From positions 64,001-128,000 of the IMG/VR virus record IMGVR_UViG_3300027972_000007: a stretch of DNA of 64,000 bases; one strand, given 5' to 3'. A program made the translations under genes and the position numbers. This document shows, piece after piece, positions 45,820 through 48,585 of the stretch. Position 1 is the first letter of the stretch. The number at the start of each line of letters is the position of its first letter. The notes beneath the pieces are model-generated. The model was not told the origin of the DNA. It saw nothing but the letters and a program-made list of their open reading frames with translations, and ran no database searches. This stretch comes from a virus.

Positions 45820-45939
45820 TATTTTTTACCTTTATGATGTTGCGGTTGGAATGCCAAATAAAATACAAAATACTGACGATATAACCAACAAACAAAAACT
45901 CTATCACTCGCATCTTTTGCCGTGGTAAAGCCTGCATTT

Positions 45940-46130
45940 GTTGCGCGATTTAGGAGGTTGCCTCCATAATTTCAGCGGTGCGGGGCTTACGGCTATATAA
46001 GGGTGGCCGGATTCATACGCCAGCACGCCTTCCCGACTTCGAGCATATAGCAACCCCTGGCAGCCGTCAACCCTAATGCTGTCTATCGCACAGCCTATAA
46101 TCATAAAAGCAACCTCTTATTTCGCGCAAC
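45940..46130 (-). ncRNA. cassette 7: probable non-coding structured cassette
   Basis: GTTGCGCGA/TCGCGCAAC ends; GAGGTTGC/GCAACCTC, ACGGCT/AGCCGT and GCTATAT/ATATAGC pairings. Confidence 0.4.
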
Positions 46131-46293
46131 GACTGGCTATGCCTGAAGTTGCCGCTTTACAATATCTAACATAGCTTTCGCGCCTGCCATATACCATCGT
46201 ACTAACAGCGGATCATTATTTTTTCGCAAACCACCGGATAATTCTTCCTTATATTTGCTGAATAACGGCAATTTTAGGCATGTTTTGTTGGTG
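46124..46293 (-). repeat. attC-like site F
   Basis: CACCAAC...ATGCCT..TTGCCG / CGGCAA..AGGCAT...GTTGCGC. Confidence 0.7.
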
Positions 46294-46448
46294 GATGGTT
46301 TATGGCATTCCTTAATGTAAGCACGAATGTACTTCCACGCTTCGGTTTGCCAACCATACAGTTTCGGTGGTAACATCGGACTATCACACACACTATCCAT
46401 AACACAACAGGCATGTTCAATATTTGTATAAATTACAGATTCATTCAT
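46137..46448 (-). CDS. cassette 6b hypothetical protein
   Basis: GGAGG RBS; reads through attC F. Confidence 0.65.
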   Translation of the reverse strand: MNESVIYTNIEHACCVMDSVCDSPMLPPKLYGWQTEAWKYIRAYIKECHKPSTNKTCLKLPLFSKYKEELSGGLRKNNDPLLVRWYMAGAKAMLDIVKRQLQA

Positions 46449-46654
46449 TCGTGCCTCCAATGTAAAATTGCCAAAACTTTTCCGAGCGATTCTTTGGCAC
46501 ACTGAAGCATCTCACCTATAGTAATATTAGAAGCAGGCTCAAAAGCCAGTTGCTCATAATACCCACGATATGAATGCGGCGAGTTAAACCCATTTGGAAC
46601 AACAAGGTCGGCTTCCTCTTGTTCGAGACGAGAAATTAAACTTTGTAAATCCAT
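46445..46654 (-). CDS. cassette 6a hypothetical protein, probably 3'-truncated
   Basis: AAAGGA RBS; PHSYRGYYEQLAFEP motif. Confidence 0.65.
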   Translation of the reverse strand: MDLQSLISRLEQEEADLVVPNGFNSPHSYRGYYEQLAFEPASNITIGEMLQCAKESLGKVLAILHWRHE

Positions 46655-46707
46655 GTTTCTGTTCCTTTCTTGGCGCGGCATATAACTTAAAAAGTCAAGG
46701 CTATTGC

Positions 46708-46800
46708 GCCTAACGTTCTCAGCAACGGGTGCTGGAAACGCCTATAATAAAATCTAATCATTAATATCCTGCGTTTCTGGCATCCCTTGCTGTGTTGTGC
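46708..46800 (-). repeat. attC-like site E
   Basis: GCACAAC..CAGCAA..GAAACGC / GCGTTTC..TTGCTG..GTTAGGC (canonical GTTRRRY). Confidence 0.8.
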
Positions 46801-46933
46801 GAAGTTTGCGATGATTCCTTAATTTAGCCACCGCATAATCGTATGTATCGCACTTATCAACTTCAAAAATCTTACATGGAAGCGTACACATTTTTTGGAT
46901 GGGGCACTTTTGGCATAAAGAAACAAATGGCAT
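46754..46933 (-). CDS. cassette 5 small Cys-rich protein (59 aa)
   Basis: Not in ORF track; GGGAGG RBS; MPFVSLCQKCPIQKMC... Confidence 0.65.
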   Translation of the reverse strand: MPFVSLCQKCPIQKMCTLPCKIFEVDKCDTYDYAVAKLRNHRKLRTTQQGMPETQDIND

Positions 46934-46980
46934 AATACCTCCCTGCGGTGGCCTACTTATATATACTCATCGCAAATTTT

Positions 46981-47055
46981 GCACAACGTCCGACAAATGG
47001 TGAAGTTTTTGTACTCAAAAATTTGCGGGTACTCCCCACCATTTGTTTGTTGTAC
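46981..47055 (-). repeat. attC-like site D
   Basis: GTACAAC..ACAAATGGTG / CACCATTTGT..GTTGTGC. Confidence 0.8.
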
Positions 47056-47059
47056 GAAG

Positions 47060-47248
47060 TTAATTGGCGACTCCGCTTTCTTCTGCCGCCACATCTTCGA
47101 CGAACTCCGCCGAAGCGTCAGGATTTTTTTCAAGCTGCTTGATAGCGTTACAGAGTTGCTCTTTGCCAATAGCCAACTGGAAACCAATACGCGCTTCGGT
47201 CAAATTGTGCCTTGCATTTTCGAGAACTTCCAAAACCGATAGAGACAT
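47060..47248 (-). CDS. cassette 4 hypothetical protein
   Basis: AAAGGA RBS; stop just before the inverse core. Confidence 0.7.
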   Translation of the reverse strand: MSLSVLEVLENARHNLTEARIGFQLAIGKEQLCNAIKQLEKNPDASAEFVEDVAAEESGVAN

Positions 47249-47300
47249 AACCGATCCTTTCTTTGTGGCGGCCTATAATAAAGACTCACCAATTAATTTT

Positions 47301-47442
47301 GTACAACGTTCTTCGCTACTGGTGCTGTTTGTGTGGACACTCGCCCACGTAAATACACGCCAGTTTATCACCAACATTGCCTGTTGAATGCTCACACTCC
47401 GCACTATTGAGAGCACAAATGGCATCCATAGCGCTGTTGTGC
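47301..47442 (-). repeat. attC-like site C
   Basis: GCACAAC..CGCTA..TTTGTG / CACAAA..TAGCG..GTTGTAC. Confidence 0.7.
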
Positions 47443-47546
47443 GATATAAAATTTTTTTCAACAAGTATTAATGCTTCTGTAACCTCTATTGAGTGTGGAA
47501 AAGGTATTGAATTTAATATTATATCATAAGCATCTTTATTAGTCAT
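47316..47546 (-). CDS. cassette 3 hypothetical protein
   Basis: GGAG RBS; reads through attC C. Confidence 0.65.
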   Translation of the reverse strand: MTNKDAYDIILNSIPFPHSIEVTEALILVEKNFISHNSAMDAICALNSAECEHSTGNVGDKLACIYVGECPHKQHQ

Positions 47547-47572
47547 ATAATCTCCAGAAAAAATTTTATTGC

Positions 47573-47721
47573 GTACAACGTTCACCGCACTGCGCGAAGT
47601 TGCGCTAAAACTGCATTAAAATCATCATATTGAGCTAATGTTAATTTATCAGACAACTGTTGTTGTAAAGAAATTATTCACCGTTCAATAAAAGCAATTT
47701 TGTTGCTGCGGTTGTTGGCTG
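47573..47721 (-). repeat. attC-like site B
   Basis: CAGCCAAC..ACCGCA..TTGC / GCAA..TGCGGT..GTTGTAC. Confidence 0.7.
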
Positions 47722-47920
47722 TGCCCAGCCCACCTGCTACACCCCCGCTGTGCTGCGCTTCAATGTTTCCTTCTTGCCGGGCGATCTTCCAATCTTTTTC
47801 GTCAACAATAACGTGGCCTTCTGGTAAGTTTTTCTTAAACTCCATGCCCGGATGCCTGTGAAGAAACCCCACCGTATCATTTACTGGATACCCCAAATAT
47901 TCCTGCTTAAACACTTGCAT
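47678..47920 (-). CDS. cassette 2 hypothetical protein
   Basis: AAAGGA RBS; start MQVFKQ. Confidence 0.7.
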   Translation of the reverse strand: MQVFKQEYLGYPVNDTVGFLHRHPGMEFKKNLPEGHVIVDEKDWKIARQEGNIEAQHSGGVAGGLGTANNRSNKIAFIER

Positions 47921-47963
47921 AAAGTTCCTTTCTTTCGCCCGGCCTATAATCAGCGCAGCATTG

Positions 47964-48124
47964 CAGCCAACGGATTGCAAAGGCATGAAGTTAAGCCCTA
48001 TAAATAGGACAATAAATAACAGCTCCATGCCCTTTACAATTAAAACCATCCTTTTCACCAACAAAAAACTCGGAACATTCCTTATTATTACAAGGCTTAA
48101 TTTTATTCTTTGTCGTGTTGGCTG
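47964..48124 (-). repeat. attC-like site A
   Basis: CAGCCAAC..CAAAG..TTAAGCC / GGCTTAA..CTTTG..GTTGGCTG. Confidence 0.7.
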
Positions 48125-48308
48125 TGCCCTGCCCACCTGCTACGCCCCCGCTGTGCTGCGCTTCCACCTGCTCTTGTGCGGCGATCTTTTCTTGTATCAG
48201 TTTTGCTTTCCAAATTTCCAGAAGAGCAATAGATTCCGCAAAAGTATAATCACTCTTATAAACCTGCTGCCCATTAAATTCAACAATTGACATCGTTCTG
48301 GTCTTCAT
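47991..48308 (-). CDS. cassette 1 hypothetical protein
   Basis: GAGGAG RBS; start MKTRT; reads through attC A. Confidence 0.7.
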   Translation of the reverse strand: MKTRTMSIVEFNGQQVYKSDYTFAESIALLEIWKAKLIQEKIAAQEQVEAQHSGGVAGGQGTANTTKNKIKPCNNKECSEFFVGEKDGFNCKGHGAVIYCPIYRA

Positions 48309-48387
48309 TTTTACTCCTCGCCGCACCTATAATCAGCGCAGCATTGCAGCCAACTATACAAAGTATGTAATAACTATATATGTATAT

Positions 48388-48585
48388 CTATTTCTTCTTT
48401 TCATTATAACTCAATATATTATCAACATTTACATGCATTTCTTTTAACATTTTAATTGCTGCTTTTTCTAAAAAATATGATAATGAACCACAAGACTTTT
48501 TACAACCTAATTTTTTAGAATTTAAACAACAAGTTTCAGTTAATTTACTATTCCACATAATTGTTGTCGTTTTTTTATTTATCAT
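48388..48585 (-). CDS. small protein, possibly ribbon-helix-helix-like
   Basis: TTTI strand then SLSYFLEKA helix; near-leaderless start. Confidence 0.55.
   Translation of the reverse strand: MINKKTTTIMWNSKLTETCCLNSKKLGCKKSCGSLSYFLEKAAIKMLKEMHVNVDNILSYNEKKK

Follow-up and report, generated by a model that had tools for sequence, protein, structure and literature searches.

An integron-like array of small gene cassettes, probably mobile, in the genome of a T4-like phage

Introduction

Integrons are regarded as a bacterial invention that is run by one dedicated integrase clade, and the geometry of their attC sites comprises an R box, an unpaired spacer of 5–6 nt on both arms, an L box and extrahelical bases opposite the cleaved arm. 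Xer-dependent modules include the pdif modules of Acinetobacter plasmids, and phages of the CTX type integrate as folded single strands at dif. Clusters of attC sites lacking integrases (CALINs) have been reported in virulent phages (Qi et al. 2023, PMC9892861), and T4-type phages carry promoter/stem-loop cassettes, the promoter early stem-loops (PeSLs) (Arbiol et al. 2010, PMC2839356; Comeau et al. 2014, PMC4122927). A full-text search of the literature returned these attC clusters in phages (PMC9892861) and the PeSLs, and no description of the system reported here. We analysed a window of 64,000 nt, bases 64001–128000 of the 170,170-bp IMG/VR virus record IMGVR_UViG_3300027972_000007, in which a GC-rich island on the minus strand (45886..48354) is probably a mobile gene cassette array that belongs to an integron-like, phage-borne gene-capture system. 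The array is integron-like and not an integron, as its core consensus, its spacer geometry and its associated enzyme all differ.

A sequence-only reading of this window had described the island as GC-richer, with seven units on the minus strand that are separated by imperfect palindromes and begin with bases matching their own ends over 7–9 nt, and it had attributed this layout to IntI-type crossover between attC cassettes. Both the GC profile and the sequence confirm the island and its seven units, and the other parts of that reading are taken up with the results that bear on them. Positions are those of the window unless a contig is named.

Results

The island and related arrays in other viral contigs

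The GC content is 0.39–0.47 across ~45850–48400 and 0.20–0.26 in the flanks, and the island of ~2.4 kb has an overall value of 42%. On the basis of the GC profile, the sequence and the repeats, it divides into seven units with their spacer sites. On the minus strand, units start with GTT at 48354, 47971, 47579, 47307, 46987, 46714 and 46130, and end with AAC at 48117, 47714, 47436, 47049, 46794, 46287 and 45940. All of the earlier matches between unit starts and ends are present and can be extended to 21–37 nt, and imperfect inverted repeats of this length, a head at the start and a tail at the end, bound units 1, 3, 4, 5 and 7. The self-match is a pairing of 21–37 nt with a conserved internal motif, and not an R box of 7 nt. 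When the whole 170-kb record was searched, a head combined with a matching CAAC tail was found only in the island units, and the four copies of the box TTATAGGC in the record all lie inside the island.

Two pattern scans of IMG/VR gave ~70 further loci, of which ~25 passed the test for a head plus its own tail. The heads were collected with a pattern derived from the window, which placed no demand on the tail, the spacer grammar or the pairing. All arrays located are in viral or phage-like contigs, which range from 6 kb to 219 kb and from 29% to 58% GC, and the first five that were fetched whole (G001–G005) have almost no proteins in common and represent at least three lineages. The contig L002 (8.7 kb, GC 43%), found through a homologue of the first island open reading frame (ORF C1), shows the same architecture six times beside a DNA ligase gene. 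The end of this contig (L002:8183-8688) also holds tandem or dispersed direct repeats of ~110–220 nt with 80–98% identity.

These arrays follow a common grammar, which is present in at least 20 viral contigs of 40–219 kb (29–58% GC) besides the window. A spacer hairpin is followed, usually after AC, by GTTG, four free nt, C/A-AAT and about nine free nt, and then by a box similar to TTATAG and by the ORF with its ribosome binding site; this box, as TTATAGG, lies 20–25 nt upstream of most start codons. In the tail, the nine and the four free nt of the head return as their reverse complements, in this order, the first followed by ACAG or ACAT and the second by CAAC; 1–3 nt then lead to the next hairpin, and 4–6 nt from there to the next GTTG. 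The first junction reads TA/GTTG in six arrays (window, L002, G002, G004, G005 and G022), compared with AC/GTTG at internal junctions, and this difference suggests that the first junction is a distinct entry site. At the left boundary in the window (TA then GTTGG, 48350..48356, minus strand), AT-rich phage DNA abuts the first cassette exactly at the core. A loose motif, CTTTG ... (G)TA/GTTG, is present upstream of the first cassette in several arrays (window 48356-48375; L002:2480-2493; G004:28180-28196; L133:2025-2044) and is a possible signature of an entry site.

Pairing of unit ends and strand of folding

From seven arrays, 38 units were taken, and their first 24 nt were scored for complementarity to every unit body, with the shared GTTG left out. 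The head found its top-ranked partner in its own unit body in 29 of the 38 units, the complementarity averaged 21.0 on the diagonal and 13.5 ± 2.3 off it, and in no case did the preceding unit pair better with a head than the unit itself. Hence the statement that a unit start matches its own end, and not that of its neighbour, holds well beyond the window. Moreover, between homologous cassettes of the window and of contig L003, whose ORFs are 87% identical, three positions of the nine-nt stem differ, and each of them is accompanied by a matching change in the tail.

Terminal inverted repeats of 21–37 nt that start with GTTG would also fit a tandem series of small transposons with one gene each, similar to miniature inverted-repeat transposable elements. 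However, the repeats vary from unit to unit while the pairing stays, which is the opposite of transposase-bound ends, and the units have neither a conserved terminal repeat nor target-site duplications nor a transposase. Moreover, the spacers obey their own conserved structural grammar and are tied to the unit that precedes them. Thus the transposon explanation is hardly credible.

Pairing between head and tail would place the spacer in the middle of a long hairpin if the cassette were circular. Junctions rebuilt in this manner (tail, spacer and own head) were more stable than the native junctions in 17 of 17 cases, with means of −29.4 and −19.1 kcal/mol, and the rebuilt junction is one continuous imperfect hairpin of about 45 bp. 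The antisense strand folds better than the sense strand in all 17 junctions with RNA parameters and in 16 of the 17 with DNA parameters. The number of G·T pairs in the same junctions is 68 for the antisense and 11 for the sense strand; approximately half of these pairs come from a conserved motif, and the remainder is still biased 3 to 1. This indicates that mismatches are tolerated where they wobble on the strand complementary to the genes. The antisense bias speaks against mRNA terminators, RNase sites and pairing between the 5′ and 3′ parts of an mRNA, and matches the behaviour of attC bottom strands.

From its base, the antisense hairpin consists of a 10–11-bp stem, the motif ATTG opposite CTGT (one wobble and one T·T mismatch), an 8–9-bp stem ending in CAAC, 3–4 unpaired nt on the 5′ arm and a 6-bp stem; the apical part has one bulged base, a 5–6-bp stem, the same motif inverted, a 7–8-bp stem and the loop. 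The two inverted motifs give a two-fold pseudo-symmetry over the central 20-odd bp, as would be expected for a site bound by a recombinase dimer. The fold thus resembles attC sites in its strand, but not in its geometry: the spacer between core and first stem is 1–3 nt on one arm and 4–6 nt on the other, instead of 5–6 nt on both, the arm with the larger spacer also has a single bulged base, 6 bp into the stem, and the pairing continues for ~20 bp outside the core. Roughly 60 sites were collected in all. An alignment of 17 spacer sites with MAFFT and RNAalifold gave no consensus structure because the alignment is not structure-aware, and anchored folding in scripts was used in its place. An Rfam search of the island gave zero matches.

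The strand of folding also bears on a PeSL-like explanation, in which every small early gene would be punctuated by a promoter and a hairpin and shuffled by homologous recombination between these motifs. The phage is of the right kind, as its record contains the gene for a major capsid protein of the T4 type (Gp23 family, E 5e-78), the island lies among accessory genes, the conserved TTATAGG box precedes most start codons, and PeSLs are documented as mediating indels in such regions (PMC2839356, PMC4122927). However, a structure that is favoured on the antisense strand cannot be an mRNA terminator or processing site, and the unit-specific pairing of head and tail across 150–1500 nt has no role in this model. 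Only ~12 nt are fixed among the copies, too few for homologous exchange. Scans of the island for sigma-70 promoters and intrinsic terminators stayed at or below the shuffled level, with no T-tract terminators, and for this reason we do not claim the TTATAGG box as a promoter. The combination of early promoter and terminator stem-loop in homologous copies is therefore not found here, and PeSL-like punctuation is an improbable explanation of the island.

Breakpoints at the GTTG core

If the island is an integron-like cassette array, similarity between arrays should end where cassettes are joined. Contigs L003 and L006 share a stretch of 641 nt (99.8% identity) whose start lies 3 nt ahead of a head, and the units and spacers upstream of this point are unrelated. 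When the similarity blocks of all arrays are taken together, a head start is no more than 3 nt away from 11 of the 86 block ends, compared with an expected number of about 1.5. Blocks that cover a spacer reach into the upstream tail and stop at GTTG, and the blocks of the window itself begin at 48354 and end at 47960 and 46984. These breaks at GTTG support the earlier view of the units as cassettes exchanged at the GTT core. Moreover, the block limits indicate that the spacer travels with the upstream unit and that the joint is the GTTG on the 3′ side of the spacer. With the usual polarity of tyrosine recombinases, cleavage at this joint would fall on the antisense strand, just after CAA, in agreement with the strand bias of the fold.

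Exchange is also visible within the coding sequences. The homologues of ORF C1 are mosaic: some share only the first 45 residues, one shares only the tail and one only the linker and the start of the tail, and the same N-terminal part is found on other tails as well as the same tail on other N-terminal parts. The same pair of head and tail also frames different ORFs (units 1 and 2, L002 and G001).

Recombinases linked to the arrays

No tyrosine recombinase was found in the 170-kb record (PF00589, E ≤ 1), whose completeness is estimated at 74%, and the array therefore resembles an integrase-less cluster. The sequence-only reading had looked to a host integrase or to one elsewhere in the phage genome; the second source drops out for the record as it stands, and a recombinase acting in trans is still plausible. 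Among the other array-bearing records, 4 of 25 have a tyrosine recombinase. The gene is co-oriented with the array in three unrelated phages, with 27 nt (G002), 6 nt (G001) and 37 nt (G022) between its stop codon and the first GTTG, and encodes 307, 268 and 298 aa, respectively. A 382-aa integrase of G024 was rejected as an array enzyme, as its gene is not adjacent to the G024 array.

The three array-linked recombinases are 28–43% identical to each other and keep the catalytic residues. They have similar scores for the XerA, XerC/D and integron integrase models, all below the NCBIfam cut-offs. Over its full length, the G002 enzyme can be aligned with archaeal XerA (4a8e), and its alignment to IntI4 (2a3v) skips ~40 residues where the IntI-specific insertion lies; this additional domain is absent from the array-linked recombinases. 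Hence the proposed IntI-type crossover is not supported, and a XerA-like enzyme is the likely candidate. By eye, a duplex dif-like site with two inverted 11-bp arms was not seen in the heads, and only some heads have local palindromes.

Of the three phages, G022 is the most informative: it is an AT-rich phage contig of 128 kb in which the recombinase gene (L133:1111-2007, equal to G022:C1:124566-125462; XerA-like) is itself AT-rich and is directly followed by GC-rich cassettes, the array extending downstream to L133:3465. The 37 nt between gene and array hold an 8-bp inverted repeat, GTTATACG/CGTATAAC. G022 also shares two genes (47% and 33% amino acid identity) with the present phage, at window ~52.8–53.8 kb, ~5 kb from the array.

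The nearest cellular relatives of these recombinases, at 36–39% identity, are Xer proteins of Peribacteria, Gracilibacteria and Absconditabacteria/SR1 (L066–L081). Such relatives in bacteria of the candidate phyla radiation could hint at the host range, which is not the same as evidence for it. Homologues of the recombinases in L063 and in 32 cellular contigs, most of which belong to Peribacteria, Gracilibacteria and SR1, have no arrays beside them.

These results can be set against the possibility that the island is a remnant of a canonical integron, that is, a true attC cluster from a bacterial chromosomal integron that is served by a host IntI integrase. The conserved AAC and GTT, the imperfect hairpins, the preference for bottom-strand folding and a cassette boundary at G/TT, where the first bases complement the unit's own inverse core, all agree with such an origin, and integrase-less attC clusters in virulent phages have been published (Qi et al. 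2023, PMC9892861). However, six of the seven window cores deviate from the GTTRRRY of the attC consensus (RYYYAAC/GTTRRRY), and only GTTAGGC at 46714 fits, as had been noted before. The unequal spacers and the pairing beyond the core do not belong to attC sites, and the bulged bases lie on the arm that would carry the cleavage site. Moreover, the only recombinases linked to arrays are without the IntI insertion, and the arrays found are all viral or phage-like, the 32 cellular recombinase homologues having none adjacent. We thus consider an integron remnant very unlikely. The sites are non-canonical, and standard models may miss them, as the sequence-only reading had warned.

Units and spacers of the window array

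All features of the array are on the minus strand. Unit 1 (48117..48354) has its head at 48354-48331 and a tail that ends in CAAC at 48117. Its ORF C1 (48308-47991, 105 aa) continues through spacer site P1 (47972..48116, 145 nt), which has a basal stem only (z +0.6 / −1.5) and a long loop that codes for the Cys-rich C-terminal tail of C1. P1 is 84% identical to L065 over 179 nt, and the block stops 11 nt beyond GTT. Unit 2 (47714..47971) has the head and tail type of unit 1 with a different ORF inside, C2 (47920-47678, 80 aa); the heads of the two units are 92% and the tails 85% identical, and the ORF bodies are unrelated. Each of the two tails has a 28-nt bulge. This common insertion (48103-48164 and 47700-47761) is translated as a Gly-rich linker, EAQHSGGVAGG, and L002 has the DNA block in two of its units. 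As other units have related cores in a different reading frame, the block is conserved as DNA and not as protein.

Spacer site P2 (47580..47713, 134 nt; z −1.7 on the plus strand) has a basal stem ACCGCA/TGCGGT, followed by GAAC and GTT, and sites of this type are also present in L003, G004 and G005. Unit 3 (47436..47579) has 22 nt of end pairing, and its ORF C3 (47546-47316, 76 aa) continues through spacer site P3 (47308..47435, 128 nt; z −0.6 on plus), which has a basal stem with a single bulged base and a loop coding for the Cys-rich tail of C3. Units 4 (47049..47307) and 5 (46794..46987) have 25 nt and 21 nt of end pairing, respectively, each with a second 9-bp stem beyond an internal loop. 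Unit 4 contains ORF C4 (47248-47060, 62 aa) and is followed by P4 (46988..47048, 61 nt), a clean hairpin with z −5.3 on plus and −3.7 on minus; P4 shares 89% identity with its relative in L065, from which it differs by compensatory changes in the basal stem, and the block stops 3 nt beyond GTT. ORF C5 of unit 5 (46933-46754, 59 aa) ends inside the loop of P5 (46715..46793, 79 nt), a clean hairpin whose stem has a bulged base after 6 bp, with z −6.3 on plus and −5.3 on minus. The description of the spacers as imperfect palindromes is thus correct for P4 and P5, the two significant hairpins among the six, and comes down to basal stems for P1, P2, P3 and P6. Many spacer hairpins in this and other arrays have TTRTAGGC or GAGTAC just before the 3′ arm (window 46737-46746, L051:18010-18020, L060:12150-12160), which resembles the TTATAGG box that follows each head.

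Unit 6 (46287..46714) has a head, GTTAGGCG, that does not match its tail, CCACCAAC (46294-46287), its own-tail match ranking only 8, and contains the coupled, overlapping ORFs C6a (46654-46445) and C6b (46448-46137). Because of this mismatch and the two overlapping ORFs, the unit is probably two fused cassettes. Only an inner stem and the 3′ arm motif are recognisable in P6 (46131..46286, 156 nt; z +0.3 / +0.9), and its loop is coding. Unit 7 (45940..46130) has 37 nt of end pairing and a tail region similar to the first unit of L006; it has no convincing ORF, and both the probable lack of coding in this unit and the two ORFs of unit 6 are as first described. The degenerate last (seventh) site (45886..45939) retains a 7-bp closing stem only (z −0.3 / −0.5), and inside it the GC content drops to the phage level. 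The window array is partly decayed, as the fused unit 6, this degenerate site and the weak long hairpins show. Five of the six clear island ORFs cross the CAAC core into the spacer.

Cargo and genomic setting

The cassette ORFs of the window encode 59–105 aa, and several are Cys-rich. Searches of the eight island ORFs against Pfam and PHROGs gave a single match, C6a to phrog_12889 (unknown function), and atlas and homologue searches with C6b gave no functional match. Among the cassettes of other arrays are genes for a C5 DNA methylase (E 4e-51) and for an MT-A70 methylase (E 1e-18); methyltransferase cassettes of these two types are located at L060:10736-12100, L065:3-557, L051:18675-19451 and L056:7467-8192.

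The source record has a GC content of 27.7%. Accessory genes, all on the minus strand, surround the island: a metallophosphoesterase-like gene, genes of sugar-nucleotide enzymes, a radical SAM gene and an RNA ligase gene. We rejected an assembly chimera, as the left edge of the island falls exactly on a core and G022 has the same layout of AT-rich phage and GC-rich array; moreover, a second record, L064 (JGI sample 3300009085, which also contains G001), is 100% identical to the phage over 11.5 kb, but may be the same assembly.

Discussion

Proposed mechanism

From the anatomy, covariation, strand bias, breakpoints and recombinase synteny observed, we infer strand exchange between cassettes as follows. 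A cassette would begin with the TTG of a GTTG core, end with the G that opens the next core, and comprise the head, the TTATAGG box, the ribosome binding site, a small ORF, the tail, as an imperfect reverse complement of the head ending in CAAC, and the spacer hairpin. Once the cassette is circular, tail, spacer hairpin and head would join into a long imperfect hairpin with conserved mismatches and bulges beside the core. This hairpin would form on the strand complementary to the genes and may be recognised by its shape, similar to attC bottom strands. A tyrosine recombinase would then cut beside the CAAC of this strand, and this enzyme is likely to be the XerA-like recombinase whose gene directly precedes arrays in other phages. 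The window array itself appears to be a recombinase-less cluster, which would rely on an enzyme in trans or may now be inactive in this phage.

Several observations weigh against this proposal. The search pattern came from the window, and the invariance of GTT and AAT outside it is thus partly by construction. Four of the six window spacers (P1, P2, P3 and P6) are not significant hairpins and have short basal stems and long loops. The presence of the same ends around different ORFs indicates that exchange also occurs within cassettes, and this is beyond the reach of a purely site-specific model. The role given to the array-linked recombinases is drawn from synteny in three phages, and 22 of the 26 array-bearing records are without a tyrosine recombinase, including six that are 95–100% complete by estimate, so that the enzyme would usually be supplied in trans, if it acts at all. 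Finally, we found no close relative of the phage among phage GenBank records (blastn and tblastn) and the viral contigs searched, and these provided no usable empty site or alternative cassette order among relatives.

A wider proposal, plausible but short of probable, is that phages own a gene-capture system consisting of a XerA-like recombinase, an entry junction adjacent to its stop codon and structure-specific single-strand sites, and that unrelated phages draw through it on one common pool of cassettes. The phages of this putative pool range from 40 to 219 kb and from 28 to 58% GC, and from T4-like phages to small phages with direct terminal repeats. Because ORFs run through the sites, such exchange might also join protein heads and tails in frame.

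If the integron-like reading is true, phages carry a parallel system with a simpler recombinase and another site geometry, folded single-strand cassette capture has evolved, or diversified, beyond IntI, and an entire class of arrays escapes integron finders. The reading would explain the base-pair-precise exchange of small early or accessory genes, probably including anti-restriction methylases, between unrelated phages, and would offer a compact pair of recombinase and site that can be tested as a tool. For the window, it would account for a foreign 2.4-kb island in a T4-like genome.

Comparison with known systems

The array shares with PeSLs the small accessory genes in variable regions of T4-like genomes, the stem-loop with a promoter-like box, and the indels and swaps at the motifs. 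PeSLs, however, are conserved in sequence and thought to be driven by homology, whereas the phage cassette sites are free in sequence and conserved in structure, they fold on the antisense strand, and the two ends of each unit pair. The likeness to Xer-dependent modules lies in an enzyme of the Xer family that moves small modules and, for CTX-type phages, in a folded single-strand substrate; in contrast, the present sites have no 28-bp dif-like duplex with two 11-bp arms, but long hairpins of variable sequence.

Integrons and CALINs are the closest in organisation. They too have co-oriented single-gene cassettes, imperfect hairpin sites with conserved AAC and GTT, a boundary at GTT and folding of the strand complementary to the genes, and here as there a recombinase heads some arrays, many arrays are without one, and methyltransferases are among the cargo. 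Nevertheless, the recombinase of the phage system is XerA-like, of 268–307 aa, co-oriented with the cassettes and without the IntI insertion, and the cores are mostly GTTG plus a pyrimidine-containing tetramer instead of GTTRRRY. The phage sites have an asymmetric central spacer, and their pairing runs on past the core for ~20 bp, across a conserved mismatch motif. Moreover, unlike those of integrons, the phage cassettes carry a TTATAGG box, their ORFs commonly cross the site, and they have so far been found only in phage contigs.

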